The notes below the pieces were generated by a model. It was not told where the DNA came from and did no database searches. It was given only the letters and a program-made list of their open reading frames with translations. A stretch of DNA of 58,979 nucleotides from an uncultured beta proteobacterium (GTDB lineage Bacteria > Pseudomonadota > Gammaproteobacteria > Burkholderiales > Casimicrobiaceae): contig CAIWHR010000076.1 of the NCBI GenBank assembly GCA_903912485.1, positions 1-58,979 on the forward strand. Direction: 5' to 3'. The position numbers and the translations under genes were made by a program. Below, in pieces: positions 21,501 through 44,115 of this stretch; the first letter of the stretch is position 1; each line of letters begins with the position of its first letter.

Positions 21501-22208
21501 CGCCTTCAGCGGATTGAGTTGACGCAGCGTCTCTCGCTTCGCCGCGGCAATGGCCACCACCGGGGCTGCCGCCGGCGCCAACAGCTTCGCATGCGGCAGC
21601 AGACGCTCGATTTCGTCCAGCAACGCAGCCGGCGACTTCCACCACTCCCACACTTCCTTGGCTGCTTCCGCGTCCAGCGGGTACATGAAGGCACGCCAGT
21701 AATCGCGGGCGACTTCCCTGAGCAACTCCTTCTGGTCGGGCTCGAGCCGCTGCGTGAACAGCGCGTCGCTGTCGAAGGCATGCTCGCGCAGCATGCGGTT
21801 GCACCAGCCGTGGATGGTGGACACGGCCGCCTCGTCCATCCACTCGGCGGCGAGCTGCAGTTTGCGCGCGCAAGCCGGCCAGGCGTCGGATGGGTATTGC
21901 GCGCGGAGGTCGCGCAGGAAGTCGTCAACCGCGCTCAGGCTCACGCCGCCACTGAAGTAGCGGGCGGCCTCGGCCAGCCGGGCGCGGATGCGGTCGCGCA
22001 ACTCCTTGGTCGCAGCGTCGGTGAAGGTGACGACCAGGATCTCCGGCGGCGTCAGCGATCGGGGGAACGCCGCATCGCCGCCGTGACCGAGGACCAGCCG
22101 CAAGTAGAGCGCGGCGATGGTCCAGGTCTTGCCGGTGCCGGCGCTGGCCTCGATCAGGCGGCTGCCGCGCAGGGGAAACTCGAGCGGGTCGAGCGATGTC
22201 GCGGTCAT
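18549..22208 (-). CDS. recB: RecB, exodeoxyribonuclease V beta subunit
   Basis: 1219 aa. UvrD-type helicase N-terminus (IEASAGTGKTWTIAALYLRL) and C-terminal PD-(D/E)xK nuclease (GFIDLIVEHEGLYYVLDYKSN). Overlaps the recC stop and the recD start. Confidence 0.92.
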   Translation of the reverse strand: MTATSLDPLEFPLRGSRLIEASAGTGKTWTIAALYLRLVLGHGGDAAFPRSLTPPEILVVTFTDAATKELRDRIRARLAEAARYFSGGVSLSAVDDFLRDLRAQYPSDAWPACARKLQLAAEWMDEAAVSTIHGWCNRMLREHAFDSDALFTQRLEPDQKELLREVARDYWRAFMYPLDAEAAKEVWEWWKSPAALLDEIERLLPHAKLLAPAAAPVVAIAAAKRETLRQLNPLKAPWLQWCNELRQLFDDSQSKKLFSGQKLNSRNRGNWLDAIKAWAEDPGFAPLVLTDAAWWRLSPEGIAEIWTVGTPPAHPAFAALAALRPQLAALPTARNDILCHAAHEVVKRFAAAQERLAQMGFNELLTRLDAALAGPNGARLAATIRTQFPVAMIDEFQDTDAIQYRIFNAVYQVEDNDQGTAIVLIGDPKQAIYAFRGADIYTYLEARKKTPGRQYTLSCNFRSTHAQVAASNRCFEMAECRAGEGAFQFRRDGDDPVHFVAATANGRQDALTAEGAAVAAMTVWRLPMPENGEPMSKTAYRDVMADICASEMVRLLNLGHDNQAGFAGEDTMRALRPADMAVLVNTGTEANLIRRALADRNVRSVYLSDRDSVFQRPEAFDLQLWLTACAEPDDGRALRAAMATTTLGLGWAALDRLNHEEIAWDDAVLQFRGYRECWRRQGVLPMLRRLLHDFAVPTRLLAQGGSGERSLTDVLHLAELLQQVSTLLDGEHALIRYLAEQRNDENEGGEGSQIRLESDADLVQVITIHKSKGLEYPLVFLPFACAFRAIKAEDHALKWHDGTGALHVELVNDDTVVSRADRERLGEDLRKFYVAVTRARYATWLGVAPVNELERSAFGYLIGGDAQSGVDTLANGHPEITVVDLPSVHSDRFRGVAQLAREGSARVPIRTVPEHWWIASYSALSTEATPVALGSAETPEEDQYREAAAAESVTPPVTPATPLVAVAARPSVGLLHDFPGGASAGLFFHSLLERMADQGFGQVAVDPVWLRETIARRCAVRGWERWIEPLAKWAQHFLQMPLTNQPPFTLAQTSADRVVAEMEFWVAVDEVDLRQLDDLVCRHIQVGADRPALKRGQLNGMLKGFIDLIVEHEGLYYVLDYKSNRLGQDDAAYSVEAMAKDVLSHRYDLQYVLYLLALHRLLRLRLPGYDYDQHIGGAIYLYLRGSQAPGCGLHADRPPRALIEALDRLFTRSSAKEAA

Positions 22209-25200
22209 GCCGTGACTCCTTCGAGTGGGTCGTTTTCCTTCCCCTTGCCCTTGGTCGCAATGAACAGCGCACCGAGCAGGTCCGTCGCCAGGGCTTCGAA
22301 TTCGCCGCCCGCGGTCAGCGTCTCGTAGTCGGGCCAGGTGCGCTGCAGATAGCGGCTCGATCCGACTTCACCGTCAGTGTTGTAGCCGCCCTCGTAGGTG
22401 CTCCGACCCTTGTCCGGATCCTCCAGCCACGCGAACGCCGTCTTCACCGCCAGCGGCAACGGACGGCACATCCCCTTGTTCCAGGCAGCGAGCAGCGTTT
22501 CGATCTTCGCGCGGGCGACATCGGAATTCAGCGGCTCGAGCTGGACGTCGCCAGCCTTGCTGACGACCAGCGTCGTCATCGGTTCGCCCCCAAGATGGCC
22601 CGCGAGATGCGCGACCCAGTGTTTGATCAGGTGGTGGCGCTGGCATTTCCTGTTCTTGAACGCGTCGCTGGTCAGGAGCACCACCCGGCCACGCCTGCCA
22701 CTCGCATCGCAACGCAGGTCGCGCAGCCAGTCGACGATCTCCAACCCGGCGACGGCGCTGTGGTAGCGCACCTCCTCATCGTGCAGGTTCGGCGTCGGCC
22801 ACGCGGCCAGACCCTCGAGGTAGCGATCGAACATGTTCGCCATCGGCTTTTCGAGCTCGGCGGCCATGAATCCACCAAACGAACCCGCGGCGAGCTGCCC
22901 TCGTCGCGCCAGGCCCTTGAGGCCCGCGGCCAGCGTGTCTTCCCGCGAGCCGCCGGCGGCGAGCGCCTCAGCCTGGTCGGCGATCAGTTCGTTCCACAGC
23001 GCCCACTTCTGCAGACCGTCCAGCGCAAACGGCTCCTGGTCGTCCCCGGCCGGATCGTCGATGTCGAACGAGACCTTCAATCGGCTCCGAAAGAAGGCTT
23101 TCACCGGATCCTTCAGAAAGTTGCCGAGATCGGCAAGGTTCAACGACTCGGTGCGTGCCATCGGCTCAAGTTTGGCCGGCATGAGTGGGACGGCTCCCAC
23201 GGAAACGCGGTCGGGGCTGCGCCATTCCCGGGCGTAGGTGAAGAGCGCCGAGCCCTCCGGAGTCGGCGGAAAGTAGGCCGGACTGAACGGCTGCAGCCGA
23301 TGGGCGACGGTCAGCATGTCGAGCAGCGCGCCGACTTCGCTCTCGTGCCCGGCAAGGCGCCAGCCCGCGGCCAGATGATCACGCAGCTGCCCGACCAGCA
23401 CCGACGGCGGCCGCACCGTGTTGTCGGTGATCGACCGCCCGACCCACGAGATCAGCAGGCGCTCGCGCGCCGACAGCAGCGCTTCGAGGAACAGGTAGCG
23501 ATCGTCCTCGCGCCGGGACCGATCGCCCGGGCGGTAGTCGTGACCCATCAGGTCGAAGTCCATCGGCACCCGCGTGCGCGGGTAATCGCCGTCGTTCAAG
23601 CCCAGGAGACAAACCTGGCGGAACGGGATGGCGCGCATCGGCATGAGCGTGGCGAAGGTCACCGCACCGGCGAAGAAGCGCCGCGTCAGGCCGCCCTCCT
23701 CGAGCTGGGCAAGCCAGTGTTCGCCCATCACCGTCAGCGGCAGCGGGTCCTCCAGCCTCCCTTGGGTACACGCGTCCAGCCAGCGGGTGAGCGCCTGGTC
23801 GAGCCGCTGCAGGGTATAGGCATCGGCCTCCTCTTCCGCGAGGAAGAAGTCCGCCAGCAGCGATCGCAGCCGGGCACACCACTCGGTCGGCGTGGCCTCC
23901 GTGCGGAACAGCGCCCAGGCGGCGTCCAGGCGATCGAGCAATTGCACCAGCGGCCCGAGCGCGGCCGCATCGAGACCGCCGATCTCGTCGAACGGCTCGA
24001 TGTCGTGCCAGGCGCCACCGGTGGCGCCGGTCGCATAGCCGAGCAGCATGCGCTTCAAGCCGAATTGCCAGCTGTTGGCCTCGGGCGCGTCGGGCAGGTC
24101 GAGACTTTTGCGATGCCGGGCGTGCAGGCCCCAGCGCACCTGCGCGCCGCGGATCCAGCGCTGCAGCAGAGGCAGGTCGTGGTCCGCGATCGCGAACCGG
24201 GCACGCAGTGCGGGCACCTCGATCAGGTCGAGGACATCGCTCGCCGCCAGGCGCGAGTTGGGCAGCTCGAGCAGCTTGGCCAGCGCATTCACCAGCGGGT
24301 CGTGGTGACGCTGGCCCTGGTCGGCAATGCTGAACGGGATGAAGCGCCGATCTTCGCGGTCGATGAGACCAAAGACAGCCTCGATATGCGGCGTGTAGGC
24401 CTCGATGTCCGGGACCATGACCACCACCTCGCGAGGGCGCAGCGTCGGATCGGCGTTGAACGCCGCCAGCAAATGGTCGTGGAGGATCTCCACTTCCCGT
24501 TGCGGGCTGTGAGCGATATGGAACCGGATCGAGAGGTCGTCTGGCGCGACCGCAGGCCAGTGCGCCTTCGATTCCGCGAGCGGGCGCAGATCGCGGATGT
24601 CGTCCTGCAACTGGTTGAGCAGGCAGTCCGTGCCGGGGCTGGCAAAGAGATCGATGCGCTGCTGGATCTCGGCAAAGTGCTGCCTGTAGCTCGCGCGTTC
24701 CGCCGCGCTGTCGTGCTCGTCGAGGAGGCCGATGAAGTCGCGCCCCTGCTTGCCCCAGGCGGCGAGCAGCGGATGCGCGTGCAGGTGCAGGTTCTCCGCA
24801 GCGATCACGGCCGGCCCCTGAGCGCGGCGTTGTTGCCGGAACTCGGTGGCACGCAGCAACTCCCGGTCGGGGACGATGTCCGCCCAGTAGTGCTCGCAGG
24901 GGTTGTGCACGCACATCAGGACCTGGCTCCAGCGCGCCACGGCCGCGAGAACTTCGAGTGATTGCCGCGGTAAGGCCGAGATGCCAAAGACCATAAGCCG
25001 TCGCGGCAGTCCGGCCGGACTTTCGGTGCCGGGGCGACCTTCAGCGTCATCCGCGATCTTCCGCAGGAACGCGGCATGGACCGCCGCCCGCCCGTTGCGG
25101 GAGATCCCTGCACCGCCATCGCTCGCCACATCGACGAGCAGCGCCTGCCACAGGCTGGCCTGCCAGCGCTGCTCTACCGGCAGTGGACGCCGCGCGCCCT

Positions 25201-25729
25201 TGGCATCGATCAGCACGTCGTCGCCCGCCTGCCAAGCCTCCAGCCAGTCGGCACGATAGACCTGATACTGGTCGAACAGGTCAGCCAACCGCTCCGCCAA
25301 CTGGGAACGCTTGCGCCGGTCAGCATCGCTTTCGAGGAACCGCGCGAGCGGGGCGTACTCCGGATTTTTGAGAAGCACCGGCAATAGCCGCATCAGCCGC
25401 CATGTCAGCAGCGACTTGTCGAATGCTGAGGTTTCCGGTACCTCACCACGCCCAAGCACGGCGCGATAGATGCGCCACAGGAACGTCGACGGCAGGACAA
25501 ATTCGATCGCCGCCGCGATGCCACAGCCGCCATCAAGCCCAGCGCCGGGATCAGCCGCCAGTCCAAGGCGCAGCCACTGCGCCACGCCATTGCTCTGCAC
25601 GAGCACCGTCTCGCGCTCCAGCGGGGCGACCGGGTAGCGCCGCATCCAGGTGACCACCAGCTCGCGCAGTTGTTCAGGGTGATTGCCATGCACCAGCATC
25701 AGGCCGGTGGGCAGCTCAATCGTGGTCAA
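22205..25729 (-). CDS. recC: RecC, exodeoxyribonuclease V gamma subunit
   Basis: TTG start with GAGGAG 6 nt upstream; 1174 aa. The N-terminus lines up with E. coli RecC as I remember it (VLVQSNGVAQWL, ADLFDQYQVYRADWL). Gene order is recC-recB-recD. Confidence 0.9.
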   Translation of the reverse strand: MTTIELPTGLMLVHGNHPEQLRELVVTWMRRYPVAPLERETVLVQSNGVAQWLRLGLAADPGAGLDGGCGIAAAIEFVLPSTFLWRIYRAVLGRGEVPETSAFDKSLLTWRLMRLLPVLLKNPEYAPLARFLESDADRRKRSQLAERLADLFDQYQVYRADWLEAWQAGDDVLIDAKGARRPLPVEQRWQASLWQALLVDVASDGGAGISRNGRAAVHAAFLRKIADDAEGRPGTESPAGLPRRLMVFGISALPRQSLEVLAAVARWSQVLMCVHNPCEHYWADIVPDRELLRATEFRQQRRAQGPAVIAAENLHLHAHPLLAAWGKQGRDFIGLLDEHDSAAERASYRQHFAEIQQRIDLFASPGTDCLLNQLQDDIRDLRPLAESKAHWPAVAPDDLSIRFHIAHSPQREVEILHDHLLAAFNADPTLRPREVVVMVPDIEAYTPHIEAVFGLIDREDRRFIPFSIADQGQRHHDPLVNALAKLLELPNSRLAASDVLDLIEVPALRARFAIADHDLPLLQRWIRGAQVRWGLHARHRKSLDLPDAPEANSWQFGLKRMLLGYATGATGGAWHDIEPFDEIGGLDAAALGPLVQLLDRLDAAWALFRTEATPTEWCARLRSLLADFFLAEEEADAYTLQRLDQALTRWLDACTQGRLEDPLPLTVMGEHWLAQLEEGGLTRRFFAGAVTFATLMPMRAIPFRQVCLLGLNDGDYPRTRVPMDFDLMGHDYRPGDRSRREDDRYLFLEALLSARERLLISWVGRSITDNTVRPPSVLVGQLRDHLAAGWRLAGHESEVGALLDMLTVAHRLQPFSPAYFPPTPEGSALFTYAREWRSPDRVSVGAVPLMPAKLEPMARTESLNLADLGNFLKDPVKAFFRSRLKVSFDIDDPAGDDQEPFALDGLQKWALWNELIADQAEALAAGGSREDTLAAGLKGLARRGQLAAGSFGGFMAAELEKPMANMFDRYLEGLAAWPTPNLHDEEVRYHSAVAGLEIVDWLRDLRCDASGRRGRVVLLTSDAFKNRKCQRHHLIKHWVAHLAGHLGGEPMTTLVVSKAGDVQLEPLNSDVARAKIETLLAAWNKGMCRPLPLAVKTAFAWLEDPDKGRSTYEGGYNTDGEVGSSRYLQRTWPDYETLTAGGEFEALATDLLGALFIATKGKGKENDPLEGVTA

Positions 25730-28923: not shown

Positions 28924-29400
28924 TGAACGATGCGATAAGTGGAAACTCTGGGTATAACGTTGGACCGAGAGCGGTCTGGCACAGGAGAGTTTCTGATGGT
29001 GAAGAAGAAGGCATCGGCGCGCCGTACGCGCCGCACGCACAGCGCGGCGTTCAAAGCCCGGGGGGCGTTGGCCGCGTTGCGCGAAGACAAGACCCTGGCC
29101 GAGCTGTGCGAACAGTTCGAGCTGCATCCCAACCAGATCACCGAATGGAAGCGGCAGTTGCTGGAGCGCGCCGCCGAGGTGTTTGACGCCGGCGCGCGGC
29201 CGGAGGCGGTGAACTTGGCGCCGCTGCACGCCAAGATCGGGCAACTCGCGCTGGGGAATGATTTTTTAGAAAGCGCGCTCAACAAGGCGGGATTGCTGAG
29301 CGCAAAGCGATGATCGACCGTGACCACGTACTCAGCATCACGCGCCAGGCCCAGTTGCTGAACATCAGTCGGGGGACGGTGTACTACCTGCCCCAGCCGA
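28924..29400 (+). mobile_element. IS3-family remnant (left end, orfA, first ~30 codons of orfB)
   Basis: Begins TGAACGATG.. (IS3-type TG end; boundary is a guess). orfA is intact. orfB starts by ATGA overlap ([30 protein letters not shown]) and then loses similarity. Confidence 0.65.
28996..29313 (+). CDS. IS3-family transposase OrfA (HTH)
   Basis: [91 protein letters not shown] is typical IS3/IS911-type OrfA. Confidence 0.8.
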
Positions 29401-29689: not shown

Positions 29690-30040
29690 AGCACCTGCCT
29701 TGGTGAGGTTCGACGGCATCCGTTACTCGGCCCCGTGCGAACTGGTCGGGCAGTTGGTCAGCGTGCGGACCTACCCGGAGCGGATCGAGATCCCGCCCAT
29801 GACCGGGTAGTGGCGAGTCACGAGCGGTCCTTCGAGCACAACCAGACGTGCTACGAGTGGCAGCATTGCCTTCCGCTGATCGAACGCAAGCCCCGCGCCC
29901 TGCGCGACGGCTCACCGTTTGCCGACTTGCCGGAATCGCTGCTGCGTCTGCGCGGGTTGCTGTTGCCGCGCCATGGCCAAGGTGCTGACGGTGGGGTCCA
30001 AGGCTGGATTGGAGGCCGTGCTCATAGTGGTCAGCCTCCC
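29690..30040 (+). pseudogene. IS21-family IstA transposase C-terminal fragment (frameshifted)
   Basis: Spread over two or three frames: VRFDGIRYSAPCELVGQLVSVRTYPERIEI, then VVASHERSFEHNQTCYEWQHCLPLIERKPRALRDGSPFADLPE, then MAKVL..GLEAVL. Boundaries are approximate. Confidence 0.6.
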
Positions 30041-31009
30041 GTCCATCAGAGCCGGGGGCCATGGGCTCGTGTTTGCATCCTTCGCCACATCGATCGGTTC
30101 GCTAACCCCCGGCGCATAGGTCAACCGCACCAGACACTCCTCCGCCCCATCGCTGACAGCCCGCAATGCCATCTCCCTCGCCAATCTCGCCCCGACCCGA
30201 TCGATGTGCGTCGGGTCCTTCCCGTACAGCGCTCCACCCCCAATGGGAATCCGCGGCCCGTAGTAATCCATCACCAGCTTGCGCCCGGTCTGGCCGTTGT
30301 CGCCATCGCTGCCGCCGTTGAGCGGCGGCCCGTTGGGGTTGAGCATCAGTTCGACCTCCTCCCAAGGCGCACACCAGCGCCGATCCGCCAGCCGAATCCG
30401 CCGATACGCATCCTCCAGCGTCCCCGCGATGGCCGTGCACAGGTCGAGGAACGACGTTTCCGGTCGCTGCTGCAGCGTGACCAGAACGTGCTCCAGCAGC
30501 CAGCGGTTGCCCTCCTCGCGCACCCGCACGATCAGCTTCCCGTCCGGCCCCTGTCCCTTGAGCCGACCGGACCGACACGACACGAACAGTGCATCGCGGA
30601 ACTCCCGCGCCAGCCAGTGCTCGATGGGCAGCCAGTCGACCTTGGCGTCGTAGCCCGCCCAGCCGATGCAGATGGCCTGATCGTTGACCTTGGCGGTCCA
30701 CTGCGTGGGGTCGCCGATCACCCGGCAGACGGTGTCGGTCACCCGGTACTGGCGGGCGTCGATGTGATTGCCAGCGGTGTAGCCGATGCCAATGCCGGTG
30801 GCGACGACGATGTCGGCGAAGTCCACCGGGATCGGCCGCCGGGTGCACACGCCGCCGGTCAGGAATACCTGATCGGACCAGACCGACATCTCGACCTGGC
30901 CGTAGCCGTCGGCGTCGACCTTCAGCACCTCGCCGATGATGGCGTCGGCGGCGGCGTCGCAGAACTTGTCGGGATGTCCGGGCAGCACGAATTCGGAGAC
31001 GCGGATCAT
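29912..31009 (-). CDS. divergent MetK-fold (S-adenosylmethionine synthetase-like) protein, 3-prime end probably replaced by IS debris
   Basis: ATG 31009 inside the 767-aa ORF-track entry. Collinear with E. coli MetK motifs: SEFVLPGHPDKFCDAAADAII, VEMSVWSDQVFLTGG, NDQAICIGWAG, GPDGKLIV, LNPNGPPLNGGSDGDNGQTGRKLVMDYYG, GGGALYGKDPTHIDRVGARLARE, YAPGVSEPIDV. Similarity ends near 30086. The last ~58 codons lie opposite the IS21 fragment and look non-native. Confidence 0.75.
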   Translation of the reverse strand: MIRVSEFVLPGHPDKFCDAAADAIIGEVLKVDADGYGQVEMSVWSDQVFLTGGVCTRRPIPVDFADIVVATGIGIGYTAGNHIDARQYRVTDTVCRVIGDPTQWTAKVNDQAICIGWAGYDAKVDWLPIEHWLAREFRDALFVSCRSGRLKGQGPDGKLIVRVREEGNRWLLEHVLVTLQQRPETSFLDLCTAIAGTLEDAYRRIRLADRRWCAPWEEVELMLNPNGPPLNGGSDGDNGQTGRKLVMDYYGPRIPIGGGALYGKDPTHIDRVGARLAREMALRAVSDGAEECLVRLTYAPGVSEPIDVAKDANTSPWPPALMDGRLTTMSTASNPALDPTVSTLAMARQQQPAQTQQRFRQVGKR

Positions 31010-31125
31010 GCGGGCACCTTGTCGAGTTGGGTGTAGGGGATGCCGGCGCGCTTCAGTTGCGCCGGGTTGCCGTCGCGGGTGACGAGCGCGGTGAGGCGCG
31101 TGCCGGCAAGAGCGAGGCGCACCGC

Positions 31126-32391
31126 CTAGCGCTCGACCGCCTCGATGTAGCCGTCGGTCAGCACGATCGCCGCCGCCGGCCGGGTGCGGGCGACGTGTTC
31201 CAGCACGCAGCCCATCGATGTGCCGCCGGTGGTCTGTGCCTTCAACTGGCCGCGCTCGATCACCGCCGGCGCGACCACGTCGGAGAACGCCCAGAACGGC
31301 CGGCGAATCCACTTCGAGACACGGGCGAGCAGCGCGATCACCAGCGGCATCTCGGCGTTCATCGAGCCGGACACGTCGAGATAGACGTGGGCGCTGCCCT
31401 CCCGCTTGGGCGAGAAACCCTCCCACAGCGCCTCGGGCAGGAACGGCGACCACTGCGCGCGCAGGAACGCCCGCCGATCGCGCGGGGAAAGCACCGGGAT
31501 GCGGTAGGCGTGCGGCTGGTCGCGCTGCGCCCGCGAGCGCGGGTCCGGCAGCAGGTGCTCGCGCAGCACCGCCAGCGTGCGTCGCTGCCAGCGCTCCAGC
31601 GGCTCGTTGCGGGACGACACGATGGCCTCGTACGCATTGGCACCGACGCCGCGGCGCTTCGGCGAGCGCCAGATGCCGCTGCCGTTCATCTCGCGCAGCA
31701 CTTGGTCGAGTGCCTCCGCCAGCGCGTCCGGCAGGCGGGCGGACGGGTCGTCGTGATTGCCGAGCATCCGATTGAAGTCGGCATCGCCTGCTCGCAACGT
31801 GAACGGCCCCGTGTCGCGGCATGCGACGCCGGGACCGGCCGCCGGCTTCACGGCCCCGAGTTCCTCGGCCAGCGCCTCGATGTCGTCGGCGAGCAGCGTT
31901 CCCGCGTACAGCCCCCGCCAGGCGCACACCCATGCCGGCCACTTGGCGCACGGGCCGAATCCCTCCAGATAGTGCCGCGACTCGCGCTCGTCCATCGGCC
32001 GCAGCAGCTTGGCCAACCCGGGCGCGTCGGCGTAGTAGCGGCTCATCATCGCCGAGTACGCGCTGCCGTGCTCGCGGTGGATGATGGCGTTGATCACGGC
32101 GTCGAGCGCCAGGTGGCGGGCGCGGGTGAAGGGCTTGCGCTCCTCGGTGTGGCGCAGCAGGACGTGCAGGAACTCGTGGCAGAGCAGCGCCTTGACCTCG
32201 GCGTCGTCGCGGCAATGGGCGGCGACGAAATCGAGGTTGACCAGAAGCCGCGGGCGCTCCTCGCAGGTCACCGCCAGCGTGGGCACGTCGGCGGTGAATT
32301 CGACGCCGAGGATGCGCAGCACGGCGCGGATGGCGAACGGGTTCTCGTCGATCAGCTCGGCGAGGATGGTGCGGAAGCGGATGGCGTTCAT
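31126..32391 (-). CDS. HExxH metallopeptidase-like + vWA (MIDAS) protein, second copy of this architecture
   Basis: ATG 32391 (MNAIRFRTILAEL) overlaps the stop of the 151-aa gene (ATGA). HExxH in LLCHEFLHVLLRH. vWA/MIDAS motifs VYLDVSGSMN, TGGTSMG, IVLTDGYIE. Confidence 0.85.
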   Translation of the reverse strand: MNAIRFRTILAELIDENPFAIRAVLRILGVEFTADVPTLAVTCEERPRLLVNLDFVAAHCRDDAEVKALLCHEFLHVLLRHTEERKPFTRARHLALDAVINAIIHREHGSAYSAMMSRYYADAPGLAKLLRPMDERESRHYLEGFGPCAKWPAWVCAWRGLYAGTLLADDIEALAEELGAVKPAAGPGVACRDTGPFTLRAGDADFNRMLGNHDDPSARLPDALAEALDQVLREMNGSGIWRSPKRRGVGANAYEAIVSSRNEPLERWQRRTLAVLREHLLPDPRSRAQRDQPHAYRIPVLSPRDRRAFLRAQWSPFLPEALWEGFSPKREGSAHVYLDVSGSMNAEMPLVIALLARVSKWIRRPFWAFSDVVAPAVIERGQLKAQTTGGTSMGCVLEHVARTRPAAAIVLTDGYIEAVER

Positions 32392-32843
32392 GCGTAGAAC
32401 CCCGTCGGATCGAAGAGTTCGAGCCGCCGCAGCAGCGCCGCCTGCGTCCACAGCACCGGCCGGGCCGGGTCGTAGAGTTGCGCGGTGCACAGTCCCAGCA
32501 TCAGCGCGTGCCAGAGCACGTCGCGCGCGGCGCCGCTGACGAGGTCGACCACGCCGCTGTGCAGGCGGTGCGGGCGGGCGACGAGGCGCTGGCCGGGGAT
32601 GTCGAACTCGCCGATCAGATCCTCGGGGGAGCCGAAGCCCTGATCGTTGAGTACCTGGGTGACCAGCTCGACCGGATCGCCCGCCGGAAAGTCGATCCCG
32701 AGGCGGACGATGCGCGGGCAGCGGACAAGGCGCTCGTCGTTGCCCAGCAGCGTCGAGTGGATCACCTCGCGGCGGGTGCGGCTCATCGGGCCGCCGGTGT
32801 TGGCGTAGCGGTCAATGCCGCGGGCGAGGTCGGGCAGCATCAT
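32388..32843 (-). CDS. 151-aa protein of unknown function, translationally coupled on both sides
   Basis: This is the last 151 codons of the 715-aa ORF-track entry. ATGATG 32838-32843 overlaps the AAA+ TGA, and its own TGA overlaps the next ATG. No motif recognised. Confidence 0.6.
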   Translation of the reverse strand: MMLPDLARGIDRYANTGGPMSRTRREVIHSTLLGNDERLVRCPRIVRLGIDFPAGDPVELVTQVLNDQGFGSPEDLIGEFDIPGQRLVARPHRLHSGVVDLVSGAARDVLWHALMLGLCTAQLYDPARPVLWTQAALLRRLELFDPTGFYA

Positions 32844-34234
32844 GCCAGCCGCCGCGCTCGCAGCACCTCGATGCAAGCCTCGATGTCGCGCTCCAGTTCG
32901 GCCGGCTTGGCCGGCTGCAGCCTCGACACCATGCACCACGAGAAGAACTGCTGCGCCCGCTCGGCGCGCGTGCCCTGCAACCCGGCGAGCACCTTGGCGA
33001 TGCGCGCGACTTCGGGATGGCTGGTGTTCGTCTCGTTGAAGCGCTCGCTCCAGGTGACCTCGCCGTCGACCGACAGGATCGGTGCCGCCACCTTGGCGAG
33101 GTCGTTGATCCCTTCCGCGCCGATCGGCAGGCGGCCCAGCGCCGCCGCCGGGTAGACGGCGAAGGCGAAGGCCCCGGCGCGTTCCTTCGACTCGGCCGCC
33201 AGGCACTGCGCGATCGCCTGCGAGCCGGCGTCCGCGGTCTTGGCATTGTCGAGCAGCAGCGCCAGCTTGCGGTCGAGCCGCGTCTCGGTCAGGAACGCAT
33301 GAACCCATGCGTCGGAGGCATTCGCGGCGCTGTCCCACGCGGCACGGTGCGCGGCGGCGATCGCCTCGGCCGCCGGCTGCTCGCCCCAGCAGGCGTGCGG
33401 CAGGCTGCAGGTGAGCACGCTGCGGAAGAGCCGCTCCCTGGTCTTGCCGGTGACGATGGTGGCGGCGAGAAGGCTGCGCGCGATCAGGCGCGCCCGCCGC
33501 GGCGAGATGCGGATGCCGCCGGCGTTGAGCGCTGTCGTGACCGCGACGGCGTAGGCGACGACCAACGGCGGCAACGCCTGCAGGCTCTGCTCGAAGATCG
33601 CGCGCCAGCCATCGACCTCCTTGCGCAGCGCGCCGCCGTCGCTGGCGATGCGGCCTTCTCCGCTGGGATCGGCCACACCCCGGCGCTCGTCCTCGCTCAG
33701 GTCCGCCCAATCGGCCGCGGTGACGAACAGCGCAAAGCGGTCCGCCAGCGCAGGATCGAGCGGCTCCGACCCGGCGTAGTCCTGCACGCTCGACTGATCC
33801 GAAGAGCACGGATTCATCGCCGCCCAGCGCCAGCGCAGGCAGGGCAGGGCAATGCCCTGCACCCGGCGCTCGTGCACCAGCGAGAACAGGCGATTCTGGT
33901 GCTCGGGCTTGCAGCGGCTGATTTCGTCGATCAGCACCGACTCCGCGCCCCAGACCGTGGCCGGCGTCTCGAGGAAGCGCACGCCGGAGCCGTCGGGGTC
34001 GGGATACGGGAAGCCGATCAGGTCGTCGAACGAAATCAGGCTGGCGTTGTAGTGCCGGTGCTCGAGGCCCAGCGTTTCGGACAGCGTGTTGAGCAGGTAG
34101 GTCTTGCCGGTGCCCGAAGGACCGATCAGCAGCAGCGGATCTTCGGTGACGAGCGCAGCCAGAATGACGGGTTCGACGGCGTCGAAGCCAAAGACGCCGA
34201 GCCGCGCCAGGCGCGACGGTGCGGATGCTTTCAC
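32840..34234 (-). CDS. MoxR-type AAA+ ATPase with ~250-aa helical C-terminal extension
   Basis: GTG 34234 with AGAGGAG 7 nt upstream (VKASAPSRLARLG). Walker A LLLIGPSGTGKTYLL, Walker B VLIDEISRCKPEHQNRLFSLVHER, then AAMNP. Confidence 0.85.
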   Translation of the reverse strand: MKASAPSRLARLGVFGFDAVEPVILAALVTEDPLLLIGPSGTGKTYLLNTLSETLGLEHRHYNASLISFDDLIGFPYPDPDGSGVRFLETPATVWGAESVLIDEISRCKPEHQNRLFSLVHERRVQGIALPCLRWRWAAMNPCSSDQSSVQDYAGSEPLDPALADRFALFVTAADWADLSEDERRGVADPSGEGRIASDGGALRKEVDGWRAIFEQSLQALPPLVVAYAVAVTTALNAGGIRISPRRARLIARSLLAATIVTGKTRERLFRSVLTCSLPHACWGEQPAAEAIAAAHRAAWDSAANASDAWVHAFLTETRLDRKLALLLDNAKTADAGSQAIAQCLAAESKERAGAFAFAVYPAAALGRLPIGAEGINDLAKVAAPILSVDGEVTWSERFNETNTSHPEVARIAKVLAGLQGTRAERAQQFFSWCMVSRLQPAKPAELERDIEACIEVLRARRLA

Positions 34235-34531
34235 TATGCTTCTCCTCTTTAGCGGCGATTGCGCGAAGGCGCGGGGGCCGCAAGCCGGAAACAAATCCCC
34301 CGGCCCGTGACGTGGGCCAGCCGTGGTGCAGATTCAGTATGCTCGGGTGGTGGCTCACAGAGTGAGCCTGATTTCGAATCTTTGCCTGACTCCCCGAGTC
34401 TTCAGGAAATACGGCCCGATGTCGCCGGAAGGCCCGGTCCCGCAAACTTCGCGGATGTCGTGCCTCCCCCGTCGGTCGCTCATTGCGCCGGGAACGCCCG
34501 GAGCGCGTGCTCAACGGCCCCAAGAGGCGGC

Positions 34532-35032
34532 TCATTCAGCCAATCGGTGACCAAACCCATCCTCGACGCCATGCATCGCCGCACGGAATCCGCGCACGTC
34601 GACCAGCGCGTTGTGACGCGGGCCGTGCGTTGCGGCCCAGGCATCGAGCTGGCGCTCGAAGGACTCTTCGATCGCGGAATCCTTCCAGGTCAAGCGGCGA
34701 CCGTGGACTCCGTGCTGGTTAGGCAGGTCGTCGAACAGCCCCGACAGCAGCCGCCAGTCGGCGCGAAGGTCGTAGATTACCGTCACCGGCTCGCCCAGGC
34801 TTGCCAGCCAGCCAGGAAGCACCTCTCGCAGCTGGGCGCGGGACATCGATACGTCCCGGCTTCGGAGAAGGTGCGGCAGCACGTTGTTGACCACAAAGTC
34901 GTTGCAATCTTCGAGGGTCCAGTTGTCGGTGACCTCGGCGTAGAACTCGCGGCCGTCGTCGGCCACCAGTGCGATGGAGATCAGGGCTGGCCGGTCCATG
35001 CTCGAGAATTCGGTGTCGAGATAGCAACGCAT
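34532..35032 (-). CDS. DEDDh 3-prime-5-prime exonuclease (DnaQ/RNase T-like)
   Basis: MRCYLDTEFSS (Exo I), central acidic motif, HNALVDVRG (H-x4-D, Exo III). 166 aa. Confidence 0.75.
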   Translation of the reverse strand: MRCYLDTEFSSMDRPALISIALVADDGREFYAEVTDNWTLEDCNDFVVNNVLPHLLRSRDVSMSRAQLREVLPGWLASLGEPVTVIYDLRADWRLLSGLFDDLPNQHGVHGRRLTWKDSAIEESFERQLDAWAATHGPRHNALVDVRGFRAAMHGVEDGFGHRLAE

Positions 35033-35448: not shown

Positions 35449-35721
35449 TCAGCCACGCTCCGGTGCCCGCCGGATTCCGAGGTCCGGGAATCGGATCGAC
35501 GCGTTGTGCTCGCTCCCGGTGGAGTACTCGAGCCGGTTGGGGTGCTGCGCTCCGTGGACGCTCGCCAGGGTATTGACGGCCAGCACGGCGAGTTCCTCCA
35601 GCGGCGCGGGATTGGCGAGGTCGAGGAAGTAGTTCGGCGACCCGTCCGGCAAGAATCCGAACTCGTCCGGCAGGTTGGTCGGCGCATCCCAGCGCCTGAC
35701 CGCGAAGGGATTCCCTTCCAT
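35449..35721 (-). CDS. hypothetical protein (90 aa)
   Basis: Clean ORF with coding-like composition, followed by the terminator at 35312-35345. No motif recognised. Confidence 0.5.
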   Translation of the reverse strand: MEGNPFAVRRWDAPTNLPDEFGFLPDGSPNYFLDLANPAPLEELAVLAVNTLASVHGAQHPNRLEYSTGSEHNASIRFPDLGIRRAPERG

Positions 35722-39551: not shown

Positions 39552-39938
39552 TCATCGAGCCGCAATCGGGGACATTTCATTGACCTTCACAGCCACCGCG
39601 CTGCACGCCTTGATGAGATCGGTAACGATGCGCTCGTCCACGTTCAGATCGCCCTCGTACTCACCTGGATTGCGGATTTCGTGGCACTTCGCCAACACGC
39701 GCCACACCTCCGGTCCCAGACCGAGCGTGTGCGGCAGCAGTTGGAACACGAGGTAGCGATTACCGCATCGGTAGCCATGCCAGCGCAGCGCGGCGAGGCA
39801 CAACGCATGCGCCGCGTTATAGGCAAGATCAAAACGGCTTTCCACCGCAAGCCCGGGCGCCCCGGCGTCCCGGAGTCGGATGGTGCCGGACCGCAGGAGG
39901 CCGGCGAACTCCTTTGCGTCCGGAGGCTCGACCTTCAG
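39552..39938 (-). CDS. HEPN-domain protein (toxin-like partner of MNT)
   Basis: FDLAYNAAHALCLAALRWHGY and CHEIRNPGEYEG resemble classical HEPN helices. No in-frame ATG or GTG near the expected start. CTG 39938 overlapping the MNT stop (CTGA) is a guess. Confidence 0.5.
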   Translation of the reverse strand: MKVEPPDAKEFAGLLRSGTIRLRDAGAPGLAVESRFDLAYNAAHALCLAALRWHGYRCGNRYLVFQLLPHTLGLGPEVWRVLAKCHEIRNPGEYEGDLNVDERIVTDLIKACSAVAVKVNEMSPIAAR

Positions 39939-40363
39939 CGGCTTGCTAGGCGCGCACCGGTGGCCTCGACCGCCGCGAAAACGTCGCCGTAGCTCAACGC
40001 ATCGCTGACCACCATCAGATCGATGTCGCTGGTGGCGACGTCCTGCCGCTTGGCGACGGAGCCGAACACGAATGCTGCCCGAATCTGCGCGGCAAGCGGT
40101 TGCAGCGCTTGGCGCAACGGCTCGGCGAGCCCGACGGTCTTCTGCAGGATTCCGCACAGTTCCGTGAATAACGGCGAGTCCCGGTTCGCTTGGTAATGCC
40201 TTTGATTTCCCAACGGCCGCACGGTCGCCAACCCGCTGCGCGCCAAACGCGCCAATTCACGTTGCACCGCGCCCGAGCCGCCTCCAGCCAGGCTGATCAA
40301 CTCGGTCGCGTAAAAGCTGCGTGCGGGTTGCCCGAATAGCAACCCGATCCAGGCGTGCCGCAA
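39935..40363 (-). CDS. winged-helix + minimal nucleotidyltransferase (MNT) protein
   Basis: LLFGQPARSFYATELISLAGGGSGAVQRELARLARSGL (wHTH) and FVFGSVAKRQDVATSDIDLMVV (GS..D.D NTase motif). Start unresolved; TTG 40363 is a guess. The ORF-track N-terminus (to 40627) runs through tRNA-like DNA and is not believed. Confidence 0.5.
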   Translation of the reverse strand: MRHAWIGLLFGQPARSFYATELISLAGGGSGAVQRELARLARSGLATVRPLGNQRHYQANRDSPLFTELCGILQKTVGLAEPLRQALQPLAAQIRAAFVFGSVAKRQDVATSDIDLMVVSDALSYGDVFAAVEATGARLASR

Positions 40364-40543
40364 AGCAAGTGCCCCATCCGGCCAGGCACCGCCCAGCCAG
40401 CGAAGCGGTTTGGCGAGAAGTTCGAGGGTCAGATCAGCATGTTGGATGAACTTGTGGGCGAGATTGCCCTGGGGCGTCGGTGCTCCGGTCAGAGTCCGGC
40501 TTGAATCCCCCTCCACCTTCGTATAGAATTCGTCGTTCTTTGC

Positions 40544-40562
40544 AGGCGCGTAGCTCAGCTGG
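40544..40562 (+). other. tRNA 5-prime-end-like fragment (acceptor + D-arm only)
   Basis: AGGCGCGTAGCTCAGCTGG matches a tRNA acceptor stem plus D-arm. I could not fold an anticodon arm or T-arm downstream, so this is not an intact tRNA. Confidence 0.3.
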
Positions 40563-40738
40563 CACCACCTTGACATTGTTGGATCGTCAGACGGTAGGTA
40601 GCACTTTTCATAGGGAGATTGCCGCATTCAACCCGTTAAGAACCGGATAGACCGCGTAATTATAAATAATAATTCATAAAAAACGAGACAGAAGCTAGGG
40701 TAAGATCGCGAACACAACCCGACCTCCGGCGATCAAGC

Positions 40739-41379: not shown

Positions 41380-44115
41380 ATGGCGAATGAACCCCGCTAC
41401 CTCGCCCAGCGGGACTACCTGCCAAGACTCCAATCGGCCATCGCGGAGGTGGCCGCCGGCAGTGCTGCAACCTTCGCGGGAATTCACGCGCGGGTAACGA
41501 CCCTTCTGGCGATCCCTCCCTCGCTGACGCAGCTTCCGCTGGTCCTGCAATCGCTCGCCAGCGTTCTTCCCGTCGCATCGAGGTTCCATCCCCACCTCGC
41601 CAACGAGCTTGACCAAATCGACCAGTGGTGCGGCTTCATCAACTCAATTCCAGCGGAGCATACATTCTGGAAGATGGAATTGTTCCGGGGCAAGAAGGCA
41701 CCGGCCGGAGTGCCGGGCGCGCACGCGACCGGCGCTCCGATGAAGCGCCGCCACAAGGGCATTGTCCTGACTCATCCACTGTGGGTTGCGTTGGGCTACA
41801 CCTCGGAGACGCCGCTCAACACGCCGGCTGGTGACACGCGCCGGTGGGCGTTCTGCAATGTCCAAGCCAATATCCTCGCCGCATTTGTCCAGCGGGCGAG
41901 CCAAGGTGACGAGCCCCACTATCGGATCGGGGATGCGTGCTGGTTGCTTCGGCAGTTCGGGGGCGACTATGCAGGATCGAACGAGGACGCTACCCAAAGG
42001 AACGCGAGGCTCATGCGTCTGCGGTGCCTCGAACAATACGCGGACGCCGGCAGCGCCGACGACCTCTTCGCGGTGGCAAAGCAACAGCATGCCGAACCCT
42101 ATCCAATCGGTCCCGGTGCCGGGGCCTTTGCCGAACTGCTCTCCGACACTTTTGCGCTCAAACACCCGCCGGTCATTCGCCACGTCGAGGCTGGAAAACG
42201 AGCACAGGGCAAGCGGCACCGTGGCCGAACTCGACTCAATGAGGAGATCTATCCGGGCTTTCGCAGCTACGAGCTGCTGAGCGACGGCTTCGGTCGCGAC
42301 GAAGCCGACGGCGGTTTTTCGATCACGCTCAGCAGCAACGAACCTGAGTTCGCCACTGCCGAGACCCTAGATGCCGCCGGCATCGATCCGGCCGAGTATG
42401 CGAGGTCGGATACAACGTGGGTAGGCGTCGAGGGTTTCGCCGAGTTGCGGGGTACTCCAGACGCTCCCGTGGGCAAGACCTTGCCACCGCTGGCGTCAGT
42501 CTATGGCATGGCTCGTGCCCGCGCCCGAGCGCAACGGCTGTCCGCCCAGCGTTTCACTACCCGGCGCGGACGTGTCACAGCACCCGAATTCGCCAGAATC
42601 CTCAGCGTGCTCGATGCAGCCTACGTAGCCGTGTTGCAACGGCGGCAAGCGAACAGCACAGGTTCCGGCTTGACGCGGTCGGCAACTTCGGATCGATTGC
42701 TGCAGGAAACGTTGGTGCTTGCCGGCATCGTCATCGCAACCGGCACCAACCCCGCGGGGGCCATCGCAGTTCATCACTGGCCGGGCAACCCCGGCTCACT
42801 GCCGTCGAACTGGCAGCTTGCCTACAGCCTCGCCGAAGGGGGCATCTGGCGGCGTCCCTGTCTTGTTCCCGTACGCGGTCCGCAAGTACCGCTGCCCGGC
42901 CAAGCGGCTTCCAACATGCCGACGGTCCCCCTCTCCGATCTTTGGGGTGTGGGCAGCAAGCTCTGTTCGCTGGGACCGCAGGGCCAATGGTTCCAGCACT
43001 CCCTTGCCCAGCTGACCGCTGCTTTCAAGCGGAACATCTCGAAGCTGCTGGAGCACGCCGGCGTCACCAAGACATGGCGCTCCCTGGACGCGTTCGCCGA
43101 CCTCCTTCCCGAATGGTTTTCCGGGATGGAGGAAGGAGACCAGCTCAGGGTCGCCTTCCTGTTCGCGCGGAACGATCCGATGGCCGCCGTCCACCTGTAC
43201 TACACGGCGTTCGACCCGTTCATGCTCGATGCCTGGCATGTCAAGTCGGTAACAGATTTACAGAAGCGCCTTGCTGCCAATGGCTTCGTCGTGCGGGCGG
43301 ATGAATTGGCGGATGGATTGTTTTCGAGTTCCCCGGCCGCGAGTATCGGACGCCGCCTCACTGGCGACGACCGCATCCTCGACCCCAAGTTCCTTCGCAA
43401 GACAACGACGACCCTGCGAGAACAGGCTCGGCGACCTGGCACCGACAGGATGGAGGATGTGGTAAGGCAGCACAATTACTTGACCGCCTACGTCGGGGCC
43501 GTTCTGGCCATCTGCACCGGGTTCAGGTCGGTCCGGACGCCGATTCCCGACCTCACCGCGATCGACCCGGAAACGGGATGCATGCCCCTGCAGGAGAAGG
43601 ATTCTGACGGCAACGCGCACGGGCGCATCGTGTGCCTTCCTGACCGTCTGCGTGAGCAGATCGACACGTACCTCACACACTTGCGTCAGCTTTGGAGTTG
43701 GTTGCCAACCAAGACGAGCAAGACACTGGAAGTCGAGGCGACCAAGCAGCGCGACCGAAGCCGGTACGGGTCGGATACTTTCCATCTGGATCTTGGCTGC
43801 ACCCTCTTCTTCCTCAAGATCGTCGAGGGAGAGGTGGTAGCGCAAGAATTCACGGGGGCTCTACTGAAGGCTTCGGTCGAAGAGGTCTGCCCGAAGTCCT
43901 GGCCGTTCGACAACTCGGGGCGGCATTTCCTCCGTTCTTGGCTCAGCCACAAAGAGTGTCCAGCAACGATCATCAATGCAGCGATGGGGCACTCGAACAC
44001 CGGCGAGTTTCCGTGGGCACCGGAATCGGCAATGGACCCCTATCGGTACCGCGAAGTTCTGCTGCAGTACCTTGATCAGCTACTGAATGAACTGCACTTT
44101 GAGGTCGTGCGGTGA
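41380..44115 (+). CDS. giant tyrosine recombinase-like protein (911 aa; catalytic domain C-terminal)
   Basis: C-terminal ~250 aa carry AICTGFRSVRTPIPDL (Arg I), GRHFLRSWL (HxxR), AAMGHSN (His/Trp position) and a downstream Tyr (DPYRYREV). The N-terminal ~650 aa are unassigned. Confidence 0.75.
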   Translation: MANEPRYLAQRDYLPRLQSAIAEVAAGSAATFAGIHARVTTLLAIPPSLTQLPLVLQSLASVLPVASRFHPHLANELDQIDQWCGFINSIPAEHTFWKMELFRGKKAPAGVPGAHATGAPMKRRHKGIVLTHPLWVALGYTSETPLNTPAGDTRRWAFCNVQANILAAFVQRASQGDEPHYRIGDACWLLRQFGGDYAGSNEDATQRNARLMRLRCLEQYADAGSADDLFAVAKQQHAEPYPIGPGAGAFAELLSDTFALKHPPVIRHVEAGKRAQGKRHRGRTRLNEEIYPGFRSYELLSDGFGRDEADGGFSITLSSNEPEFATAETLDAAGIDPAEYARSDTTWVGVEGFAELRGTPDAPVGKTLPPLASVYGMARARARAQRLSAQRFTTRRGRVTAPEFARILSVLDAAYVAVLQRRQANSTGSGLTRSATSDRLLQETLVLAGIVIATGTNPAGAIAVHHWPGNPGSLPSNWQLAYSLAEGGIWRRPCLVPVRGPQVPLPGQAASNMPTVPLSDLWGVGSKLCSLGPQGQWFQHSLAQLTAAFKRNISKLLEHAGVTKTWRSLDAFADLLPEWFSGMEEGDQLRVAFLFARNDPMAAVHLYYTAFDPFMLDAWHVKSVTDLQKRLAANGFVVRADELADGLFSSSPAASIGRRLTGDDRILDPKFLRKTTTTLREQARRPGTDRMEDVVRQHNYLTAYVGAVLAICTGFRSVRTPIPDLTAIDPETGCMPLQEKDSDGNAHGRIVCLPDRLREQIDTYLTHLRQLWSWLPTKTSKTLEVEATKQRDRSRYGSDTFHLDLGCTLFFLKIVEGEVVAQEFTGALLKASVEEVCPKSWPFDNSGRHFLRSWLSHKECPATIINAAMGHSNTGEFPWAPESAMDPYRYREVLLQYLDQLLNELHFEVVR

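Follow-up and report, generated by a model that had tools for sequence, protein, structure and literature searches.

MoxR-like AAA+ ATPases that work with a protein carrying a von Willebrand factor A (vWA) domain are described from predicted conflict systems and from enzyme activases. The MoxR-vWA ternary conflict systems comprise VMAP, iSTAND, FtsH and beta-propeller classes, and in these predicted systems a sensor-like third protein and peptidase domains are added to the pair (Kaur, Burroughs, Iyer, Aravind, eLife 2020, PMC7159879). In the activase NorQD, the metal ion-dependent adhesion site (MIDAS) of the vWA protein holds a peptide of the client, and the AAA+ ring, which is engaged through the vWA finger and C-terminus, remodels that client (PMC13036017). 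Here we describe a cassette of four genes in which such a pair is coupled to an enzyme with the fold of S-adenosylmethionine (SAM) synthetase (MetK), also termed methionine adenosyltransferase (MAT). The cassette lies in a stretch of 58,979 nucleotides (nt) from contig CAIWHR010000076.1 of an uncultured beta proteobacterium, and this whole stretch is referred to as the window. Its genes encode an AAA+ ATPase (gene 1), a protein of 151 amino acids (aa; gene 2), a protein that combines an HExxH motif with a MIDAS-vWA domain (gene 3) and the MAT-fold protein (gene 4, MetK-like).

In joining MoxR, vWA, a peptidase and a third protein, the cassette is of the predicted conflict-system kind. What is new is that a re-tooled enzyme of the MAT fold is coupled to it in a fixed way, that a 151-aa protein takes part and that there is a link to canonical MetK. 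The original prediction, made from the sequence of the window, could point to no described system that couples a MoxR/vWA pair to a MAT-fold enzyme, and a published description was indeed not found. Literature searches for SAM synthetase or MetK together with MoxR, vWA, defence or anti-phage returned no description of it. The cassette also goes unmentioned in the Aravind-laboratory papers on MoxR-vWA systems, in the papers on bacteriophage exclusion (BREX) and phosphorothioate (Dnd) systems, in DefensePredictor and in a language-model survey of defence. The cassette probably represents a new module for defence or stress, and there is an appreciable chance that the chemistry of its enzyme is categorically new. 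Our tentative reading, to which we give slightly less than an even chance, is that of a mobile module in which a MoxR/vWA-zincin machine controls a MAT-fold enzyme that would cleave a nucleoside triphosphate (NTP) with a non-methionine nucleophile, probably in phage defence.

Linkage and distribution of the cassette

Related loci were gathered from two directions. A vWA alignment was run against one genome per species (185,579 species) and found 85 relatives, from which 80 loci were fetched. Together with two further loci, L001 and L002, these form a genome-derived set of 82 loci, 72 of which have at least 600 nt of sequence downstream and enter the downstream count. The metagenome scan was seeded with an alignment of the MetK-like protein and found 377 relatives, the best 80 loci of which were analysed.

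Seen from the vWA gene, the MetK-like gene lies downstream in 67 of the 72 genome loci (adjacent in 60, displaced by an insertion of 1-2.5 kb in 7). Seen from the MetK-like gene, among the best 80 of the 377 metagenome relatives, the vWA gene adjoins it in all 67 loci with room upstream, and all three partners are present in 36 of the 36 loci with at least 3.4 kb upstream. The AAA+ and 151-aa genes precede the vWA gene in the genome loci wherever the sequence reaches, and the MIDAS-vWA gene is found two genes downstream of the AAA+ gene in every intact locus. Counting genomes and metagenomes together, about 150 independent contigs show the identical gene order, which is far beyond chance. The conserved neighbourhood thus holds in both search directions, and homologues of these genes, far from never occurring together in other genomes, are linked in the proportions just given.

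The original prediction also described the genes as a tightly coupled operon, which is borne out by the overlapping stop and start codons as well as by the neighbourhood. The ATG of the 151-aa gene shares 4 nt with the stop of the AAA+ gene, and the start of gene 3 shares 4 nt with the stop of the 151-aa gene. Stop/start overlaps are present in the window and in three related loci (L001, L002 and L084). The four genes are inseparable and translationally coupled.

The MetK-like gene was never found alone and is always the last gene of the cassette. Five of the 72 genome loci lack it. One of these (L006) is a deletion remnant, and three (L046, L067 and L068) are decayed, disrupted or frameshifted. 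The sole true substitution is L016, in which an unrelated ORF (open reading frame) of 368 aa at 7296-8402 (+) occupies the position of the MetK-like gene. This locus, from Elusimicrobiota, has a canonical metK upstream and a metF-like gene downstream, and no other locus offers a candidate for a different fourth component. Alternative effectors that replace the MetK-like gene were considered as a general feature and rejected, since among the five loci without it L016 alone carries another gene.

The carriers are found among Beta-, Gamma- and Alphaproteobacteria, Myxococcota, Elusimicrobia, Acidobacteria and Gemmatimonadetes, and further among Latescibacterota, a cyanobacterium, Chloroflexi, Spirochaetales, Aminicenantes, Riflebacteria and others. 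Among cultured carriers are Azoarcus sp. CIB (P0089) and Novosphingobium sp. NPDC080210 (L050). The spread is patchy: more than 10 phyla are represented, yet the cassette occurs in about 0.05% of species genomes. Phyletic patchiness, the one source from which mobility is read here, suggests a horizontally moving accessory module.

Five of the loci with displaced MetK-like genes (L037, L038, L049, L059 and L069) have insertions of 1-2.5 kb between the vWA and MetK-like genes, at about 11.2-13.7 kb in locus coordinates. The insertions carry toxin-antitoxin-like, GNAT or ORF6N/KilA-like genes. All five abut the 5' end of the MetK-like gene precisely, and four of them are preceded by a duplicate of its first 10-20 codons. 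Small cassettes appear to integrate site-specifically at this point and to rebuild the start of the MetK-like gene.

The MAT-fold enzyme and its three partners

Functional motifs are kept in all four proteins across more than 10 phyla: Walker A and B, HExxH, MIDAS, and the MAT catalytic His with its ligands. Pfam identifies S-AdoMet_synt_N, _M and _C in the MetK-like protein, DUF2201 in the vWA protein and AAA_5 in the ATPase.

MAT is among the most conserved enzymes, and we know of no functionally distinct paralogue family of it that has been characterised. The MetK-like protein carries the motifs GHPDK, PDGK, GDNGQTGRK and GGGALYGKDPTHIDR. S-AdoMet_synt_N (47.5 bits) and _C (70.8 bits) both score above their cut-offs, and _M (21.6) is below its cut-off of 29. 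The housekeeping metK is another matter. TIGR01034, the metK equivalog, scores 140.9 bits against a cut-off of 309.4 and covers profile positions 2-308 of 377, the identity to Escherichia coli MetK is 29%, and the gene sits in a mobile cassette. Together with the census of residues, the score and the identity rule out that the MetK-like gene is the housekeeping metK.

For this census, 160 family members including that of the window were aligned to E. coli MetK, whose sequence was verified against PDB 7ll3, and the roles of residues were taken from the literature (PMC3853416). E42, D118, Q119, D163, K165, D238, R244, K245, K265, D271 and R272 are invariant in all 160 sequences. H14, P15, D16 and K17 are invariant except in one sequence with a gap there (159 of 160 for H14, D16 and K17). 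H14, which is H12 in the numbering of the window protein, is the catalytic acid, and D163 and D238 are ligands of the ribose hydroxyls (PMC3853416). The residues assigned to methionine recognition (E55, Q98, I102 and K269) and to adenine (R229 and F230; PMC3853416) follow a different pattern. E55 is replaced by Gly in 144 of the 160 and K269 by His in 159. Q98 is variable, and I102 is deleted in 159, lost with a gating loop that is 7 residues shorter. R229 is Pro in 157 and H257 is replaced by Ile, and the adenine-stacking F230 is Leu or Met in 149 sequences and Pro in the window.

The claim that the protein is collinear with SAM synthetase through every catalytic block therefore stands for the ATP and triphosphate blocks, whereas the methionine pocket and the adenine-stacking residue are replaced. 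The positions affected are those that contact the amino group, the carboxyl group and the side chain of methionine, together with the one for adenine stacking. Judging from the alignment, the MetK-like protein almost certainly still binds a ribonucleoside triphosphate and carries out chemistry at the C5'-O5' bond and on the triphosphate, because the family keeps the catalytic His and every ligand of triphosphate, Mg and ribose. Use of methionine is not expected. With the methionine pocket and the adenine-stacking residue exchanged systematically across the family, consumption of methionine, which had been entertained earlier, and production of SAM are both unlikely. A different nucleophile is likely, and the enzyme may not be adenine-specific.

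The C-terminus of the protein differs between branches of the family. Collinear alignment with the sequences of MetK crystal structures ends at residue 308-312, and the last ~55 residues of the window protein are unconserved read-through. DNA homology to the nearest relatives (L084, L001 and L003) ends at nt 924, and each copy in this subclade has its own short tail, giving 318-319 aa in the three relatives and 365 aa in the window. Remoter members have ~358 aa and retain the MetK-like C-terminus. Pairwise ratios of non-synonymous to synonymous substitution rates (dN/dS) are 0.09-0.15 for the short form in the window subclade. By this measure the short form is under purifying selection and not decaying. 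Truncation by an insertion sequence (IS) is unsupported, as the whole subclade (L001, L003, L084 and P0001-P0020) ends near codon ~310.

The ATPase has a Walker A motif GPSGTGKT and a Walker B motif VLIDE. Its assignment as a MoxR/AAA_5-type ATPase is confirmed by an AAA_5 score of 34.4 bits (cut-off 22), with AAA_3 at 24.2 (cut-off 27), and by matches of all 26 relatives to AAA_5, AAA_3 and bpMoxR (E up to 0.1). Invariant in the family are Walker A G38-T45, Walker B D103/E104, the sensor-1 N141 and R246/R247. A profile search of PDB identifies midasin AAA_5 modules, with 2r44, a MoxR structure, as a weak further match (E 0.18); searches with the AAA+ and vWA families found nothing in PDB past P-loop-level matches. 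The protein consists of an ATPase core of ~200 residues and a C-terminal half of ~260 residues without a match.

The 151-aa protein has no match in Pfam, NCBIfam or PADLOC. Its N-terminal ~40 residues are predicted to be disordered and bear a near-invariant motif, ANxGGPxSRxRxE...LLG...CPR, and its C-terminal tail ELFDPxGFYA is invariant and acidic-aromatic. AlphaFold2 (AF2) models the protein as a compact alpha/beta domain with a predicted local distance difference test (pLDDT) score of 80, a fold for which Foldseek finds no match with E <1 in PDB or BFVD. There are 327 homologues, all of about 150 aa and none annotated. A profile search of 1.84 billion representatives returned 312 clusters, in which no protein exceeds 277 aa, and it revealed no distant family. 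The protein is specific to the cassette. Its termini suggest a peptide for capture by the MIDAS site, for threading through the AAA+ pore or for cleavage by the peptidase.

Gene 3 encodes the motifs CHEFLHVLLRH (HExxH) and YLDVSGSMN (MIDAS). DUF2201 scores 28.4 bits (cut-off 26.4) and is matched by 64 of 65 relatives. DUF2201_N scores 19 (cut-off 23.2) and is matched by 38 of the 65 (best E 1.5e-7), and six relatives match Peptidase_M48 weakly. H72, E73, H76, H81 and D97 are invariant, as are D339, S341, S343, T391 and D413 of the MIDAS. The AF2 model (pLDDT 75) has three strands, the HExxH helix and a further helix, followed by a Rossmann-like C-terminal domain. With Foldseek this last domain matches the vWA of CMG2 (E 3e-5) and NorD of the NorQD complex (probability 1.0); a fold match for the N-terminal domain was not obtained from PDB. 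The reading of gene 3 as an HExxH plus MIDAS-vWA protein thus holds, with an intact MIDAS, an invariant HExxH and a vWA fold.

The copy in the window and its surroundings

The layout of five ORFs first drawn for this region, which placed a DEDDh exonuclease upstream of the four genes, was re-found on the minus strand with the same coordinates and stop/start overlaps (Table 1).

Table 1. Positions of the cassette genes and adjoining features in the window
Feature	Position	Strand	Remarks
Gene 1, AAA+ ATPase	32840-34234	-	464 aa; GTG start after AGGAG ribosome-binding site
Gene 2, 151-aa protein	32388-32843	-	ATGA overlaps with both neighbours
Gene 3, HExxH-vWA protein	31006-32391	-	full frame of 461 codons; amber codon after residue 421
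Gene 4, MetK-like protein	29912-31009	-	365 aa; conserved part is codons 1-308 (30086-31009)
Premature in-frame TAG, gene 3 codon 422	31126-31128	-	removes 39 conserved C-terminal residues
DEDDh-like ORF	34532-35032	-	166 aa, upstream of the AAA+ gene
Terminator-like hairpin	34300-34320	-	between the DEDDh and AAA+ genes; 7-bp stem with 6 GC pairs, T-rich tail

The original prediction placed a gap of 116 nt between genes 3 and 4. This is not intergenic sequence. The vWA frame reads through the TAG for 39 more conserved codons (...IEAVER-stop-AVRLALAGTRLTALVTRDGNPAQLKRAGIPYTQLDKVPA-stop), and the read-through ends at the stop that overlaps the ATG of the MetK-like gene. The supposed gap is thus vWA coding sequence, the 3' end of the gene, cut off from the rest by a single-base amber codon; a regulatory spacer is thereby ruled out. 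In a contig from another run (L083), all 1386 nt agree with gene 3 of the window save one, an A where the window has T, so that the codon reads AAG (Lys). For a contig of 58,979 bp, a gene table lists a gene 3 product of 461 aa. Intact homologues are of comparable length (457 aa in L001 and 468 aa in L002), and the 120 best listed relatives of gene 3 are full length, mostly 450-476 aa, with one exception of 385 aa. Because L083 is identical but for one base and the listed product has 461 aa, the TAG is to be seen as a mutation of very recent date, as a polymorphism or as an error.

The amber codon breaks the ATGA coupling of gene 3 to gene 4. If it is real, the loss of the C-terminus should impair the machine, given that the NorQ ATPase is contacted by the C-terminus of the analogous NorD (PMC13036017). 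The AAA+, 151-aa and MetK-like genes of the window copy are intact, and the copy is probably impaired by the amber codon in its vWA gene.

The nonsense codon and the unconserved tail of the MetK-like protein, with a fragment of an IS3-family transposase ~600 bp downstream, are what might be expected of an ordinary housekeeping metK or a decaying cluster of pseudogenes that came to lie beside unrelated genes by chance. Split alignments in about 20% of the genome loci (16-19 of 82 for the three larger genes) could be taken in the same sense, although many of these loci come from long-read metagenome-assembled genomes. The TIGR01034 score, however, is less than half of the cut-off at 29% identity, gene order is kept in about 150 contigs from more than 10 phyla, dN/dS is about 0.1, and the amber codon comes down to one base, the rest being identical in another contig. 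Conservation and selection thus refute this explanation, to which we attach a practically negligible probability.

The transposase fragment is an orfA (HTH_Tnp_1) at 28939-29313 (+), and its distance is counted from the MetK-like stop. The GC content falls to 0.58-0.62 over about 25-30 kb, suggesting a junction of foreign segments.

The DEDDh-like ORF has the position and strand ascribed to it, but it is not part of the unit. With tblastn no homologue is found in the 82 genome-derived or the 80 metagenome-derived loci, and it is rejected as a component and regarded as a neighbour only. Like the 151-aa protein, its product is without any Pfam match at cut-off; it has a weak match to RNase AS (E 4e-9, far below the cut-off). 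The hairpin that separates it from the AAA+ gene is a weak signal, as a promoter and terminator scan of this region found sites no more numerous than in shuffled sequence; it probably marks the upstream limit of the cassette transcription unit. Upstream of the DEDDh-like ORF is an ORF of 90 aa at 35449-35721 (-), with a weak TY-Chap3 match in a precomputed table. It never accompanies the cassette at other loci.

The surroundings had been described as an island rich in defence-like genes, and the Type IV restriction, PDC-M05A and LmuB-like neighbours in the window agree with this. The segment 35903-39367 (+) encodes a HIT-family protein, ThsC-like in PADLOC, and after it a MazG-PLD-ResIII helicase of 1021 aa, which PADLOC assigns to Type IV methyl-directed restriction enzymes (E 2.6e-96). 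A Pol-beta-type nucleotidyltransferase at 39935-40627 (-) matches the PADLOC candidate PDC-M05A (E 1e-55). On the other side, the protein of 1290 aa encoded at 10908-14780 (-) matches LmuB, the SMC-like ATPase of Lamassu (E 4e-19), and also mad3 and mad8. Two overlapping ORFs of 911 aa and 1211 aa at 41380-47747 (+) lie inside the island, the second weakly phage-integrase-like; they have no match in PADLOC. Two further ORFs, of 1219 aa and 1174 aa, are found at 18549-25729 (-). The latter is RecC (RecC_N and RecC_C in a precomputed table), so that a chromosomal recBCD-type context adjoins the island.

Proposed role and comparison with known systems

One neighbour recurs at the related loci. 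A canonical MetK is encoded upstream on the same strand within 2.5 kb in 13 of the 81 loci with enough upstream sequence, 133-2016 nt before the AAA+ gene. These proteins are full length and 52-61% identical to E. coli MetK, and ten of the adjacent copies keep all the substrate residues that the MetK-like family has lost. Among 142 flanking proteins from the genome loci, canonical MetK is the top Pfam family and the only recurrent neighbour. The copies belong to at least 7 sequence-distinct lineages. Eight of them, all from outside Elusimicrobia, share an insertion of 7 residues, and their similarity across phyla equals that within phyla. In the Elusimicrobia loci L008 and L016 the neighbour resembles the housekeeping metK, with the island inserted beside it. 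The canonical MetK, which the original prediction missed, is an optional fifth gene of the cassette, and its recurrence is far above chance for a single-copy gene. It follows that the biology of the cassette is tied to SAM synthesis. SAM-dependent methyltransferase genes, one of them HNH-fused, lie no more than 2-3 kb upstream of the cassette in two loci whose context is otherwise housekeeping (L167 at 5573-7312 (-) and L170 at 5702-6370 (+)); they may be there by chance or may be another link to SAM.

Phages attack the SAM supply with SAM lyases to escape restriction and BREX, and a phage SAM lyase binds MetK directly. Phage T3 is reported to overcome BREX with a SAM lyase that cleaves SAM and inhibits its synthesis. 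The MetK-like protein could accordingly be a mimic of MetK, either a guard or decoy that traps MetK-binding SAM lyases, which the AAA+/vWA-zincin machine would then report or remove, or a subunit that exchanges into tetramers of the host MetK or of the canonical MetK of the cassette and shuts down or rescues SAM synthesis upon infection. MAT active sites are built from two subunits (PMC3853416, PMC1282579), so hetero-oligomers would alter the sites. The canonical MetK as an optional first gene of the operon fits such a mimic, as do the reported action of the T3 enzyme on SAM synthesis and the remodelling of oligomeric enzymes by AAA+/vWA machines. A pure decoy, however, needs no strict catalytic invariance, which the 160 sequences keep as their surface varies, and the window subclade has lost its C-terminal ~70 residues yet stays under selection. 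We consider a mimic quite improbable.

The remaining flanks are often those of defence islands. L001 is flanked by DndD/E, WYL, RmuC and patatin genes, L002 by TerY-P and DruA, and L084 by NERD, WYL and a set of methylase, Vsr, SNF2 and MmeI genes. The 142 flanking proteins include SoFic, Type IV restriction (mREase_IV), PbeA, DpdF, WYL, AbiEii and DNA methylases. The association with defence is real, not universal.

Contexts of the other sort bear on a module for enzyme maturation without a role in immunity. In such a module the 151-aa protein would be an assembly factor, and the AAA+/vWA pair would load metal into the MAT-fold enzyme or remodel it, in the manner of NorQ/NorD, CbbQ/CbbO and CoxD/CoxE; the product would be an alternative sulfonium or nucleoside metabolite in methionine/SAM metabolism. 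The characterised MoxR/vWA pairs are activases of an enzyme encoded nearby (PMC13036017, PMC9976466). Mg2+ and K+ are required by MAT, whose metal ligands the family keeps without exception. The only recurrent neighbour is canonical metK, the Elusimicrobia cassette sits beside metK with a metF-like ORF downstream in L016, several contexts are housekeeping, and PADLOC matches none of the cassette. Set against this are the very sparse and patchy spread across phyla and the fact that no genes for biosynthesis, transport or regulation travel with the cassette. Its neighbours often include defence genes and toxin-antitoxin cassettes, and small cassettes insert into the operon. The invariant HExxH and the 151-aa protein, moreover, are without a counterpart in known activases. 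A maturation module is rather doubtful on this balance.

The most likely role of the cassette appears to be defence against phages or mobile elements, tied to the SAM pool. The steps that we propose are drawn by analogy with NorQ/NorD and with the predicted MoxR-vWA conflict systems. A hexamer of the AAA+ protein would grip the vWA protein, and the MIDAS site would capture an acidic peptide, either the acidic C-terminal tail of the 151-aa protein or its disordered N-terminus. Until triggered, probably by infection, the trio of AAA+, zincin-vWA and 151-aa proteins would act as a switch that keeps the MAT-fold enzyme inactive. It would then turn the enzyme on through remodelling driven by ATP, to which cleavage by the zincin may contribute. 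The enzyme would break the C5'-O5' bond of ATP or of another ribo-NTP, with some nucleophile other than an amino acid as acceptor of the nucleosyl group, and would release and hydrolyse the triphosphate. The outcome might be depletion of nucleotides, or a 5'-substituted nucleoside adduct that is toxic or serves as a signal. From the optional canonical MetK one may suspect that the SAM pool is part of the substrate, trigger or purpose.

As to the nucleophile, one may speculate on a thioether, such as 5'-methylthioadenosine or S-adenosylhomocysteine, or on a thiol or thioether of a macromolecule. 5'-Methylthioadenosine is a product of phage SAM lyases. That the enzyme is of a new class, which by C5' attack on an NTP and cleavage of the triphosphate hands the nucleosyl group to a non-methionine nucleophile, is gated by the MoxR/vWA-zincin machine and, through its product or the loss of ATP, provides an immune effector or signal tied to the SAM pool, is a rather unlikely proposal.

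Several observations weigh against a controlled NTP-cleaving module for phage defence. No cassette is found in IMG/VR (2.9 million viral contigs) or in PLSDB (72,556 plasmids). PADLOC-DB v2.0 provides no model for it and gives a single P-loop-level match of the AAA+ protein to mad8 (E 3.4e-6). Clear defence islands are seen in about four of seven annotated contexts (the window, L001, L002 and L084), and L165, L167 and L170 lie among kinase/TPR or housekeeping genes. The window subclade is without the last ~70 residues of the MAT fold, though under purifying selection. The composition is fixed and effectors are not swapped, unlike in most modular conflict systems. Lastly, the N-terminal domain of gene 3 is called zincin-like from its motif, weak Pfam matches and predicted topology.

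The interest of the cassette is in what its parts would imply. More than 150 sequences keep the catalytic machinery and rebuild the substrate pocket, which suggests a new nucleoside-transfer or NTP-cleaving chemistry. If true, a MAT-fold effector that does not use methionine would be a previously unknown chemistry in bacterial immunity, and a layer of defence that watches or exploits the SAM pool would be new. The obligatory coupling to MoxR and a vWA-zincin would give a tractable minimal model of the control over a client enzyme by AAA+/vWA switches, which are widespread but little understood.

Compared with the MoxR-vWA ternary systems (PMC7159879), the cassette has the same core of a MoxR-like AAA+ and a vWA protein, an obligatory third protein specific to the system, a peptidase-type domain fused to the vWA protein and neighbourhoods of conflict and defence genes. 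The proposed threshold switch that releases an effector is also shared. The third component, however, is a 151-aa protein and not VMAP, iSTAND, FtsH or a beta-propeller. The extra domain of the cassette is N-terminal to the vWA, whereas theirs is a variable C-terminal effector that is swapped. The HExxH domain is N-terminal in all of about 150 loci, in a fixed architecture, with no other effector except in L016. A separate MAT-fold enzyme is obligatory here, and SAM synthetase is not mentioned for the ternary systems (PMC7159879). Proteobacteria, Acidobacteria and Elusimicrobia account for most hosts of the cassette, and no connection with multicellularity is evident.

The families DUF2201_N and DUF2201 (COG3864, "predicted metal-dependent peptidase") have the same layout of an HExxH followed by a vWA and an AAA_5 partner. 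Literature on these Pfam families is essentially absent, with 4 incidental mentions. Gene 3 is a divergent branch in which DUF2201_N falls below the cut-off, and the coupling to the 151-aa and MAT-fold proteins is specific to this branch.

With the activases NorQ/NorD, CbbQ/CbbO, CoxD/CoxE and RavA/ViaA the cassette shares an AAA_5/MoxR gene beside a gene for a MIDAS-vWA protein and a presumed client. The vWA model matches NorD, and the C-terminus that contacts the ATPase in NorQD is the part removed here by the amber codon. In contrast to the activases, the cassette has a MAT-fold enzyme as its presumed client, for which there is no precedent, an HExxH domain in its vWA protein and a dedicated small protein. 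The cassette is also mobile and rare, and it does not form part of a respiratory or carbon-fixation operon.

SAM synthetase itself (MetK/MAT, EC 2.5.1.6, TIGR01034) has the three-domain fold, the catalytic His and the Mg/K, triphosphate and ribose ligands in common with the MetK-like protein. The latter differs in being 29% identical, more than two-fold below the equivalog cut-off and bound to a cassette, and in the replacement of its methionine and adenine residues. In the subclade of the window, the C-terminal ~70 residues that SAM synthetase possesses are missing as well.

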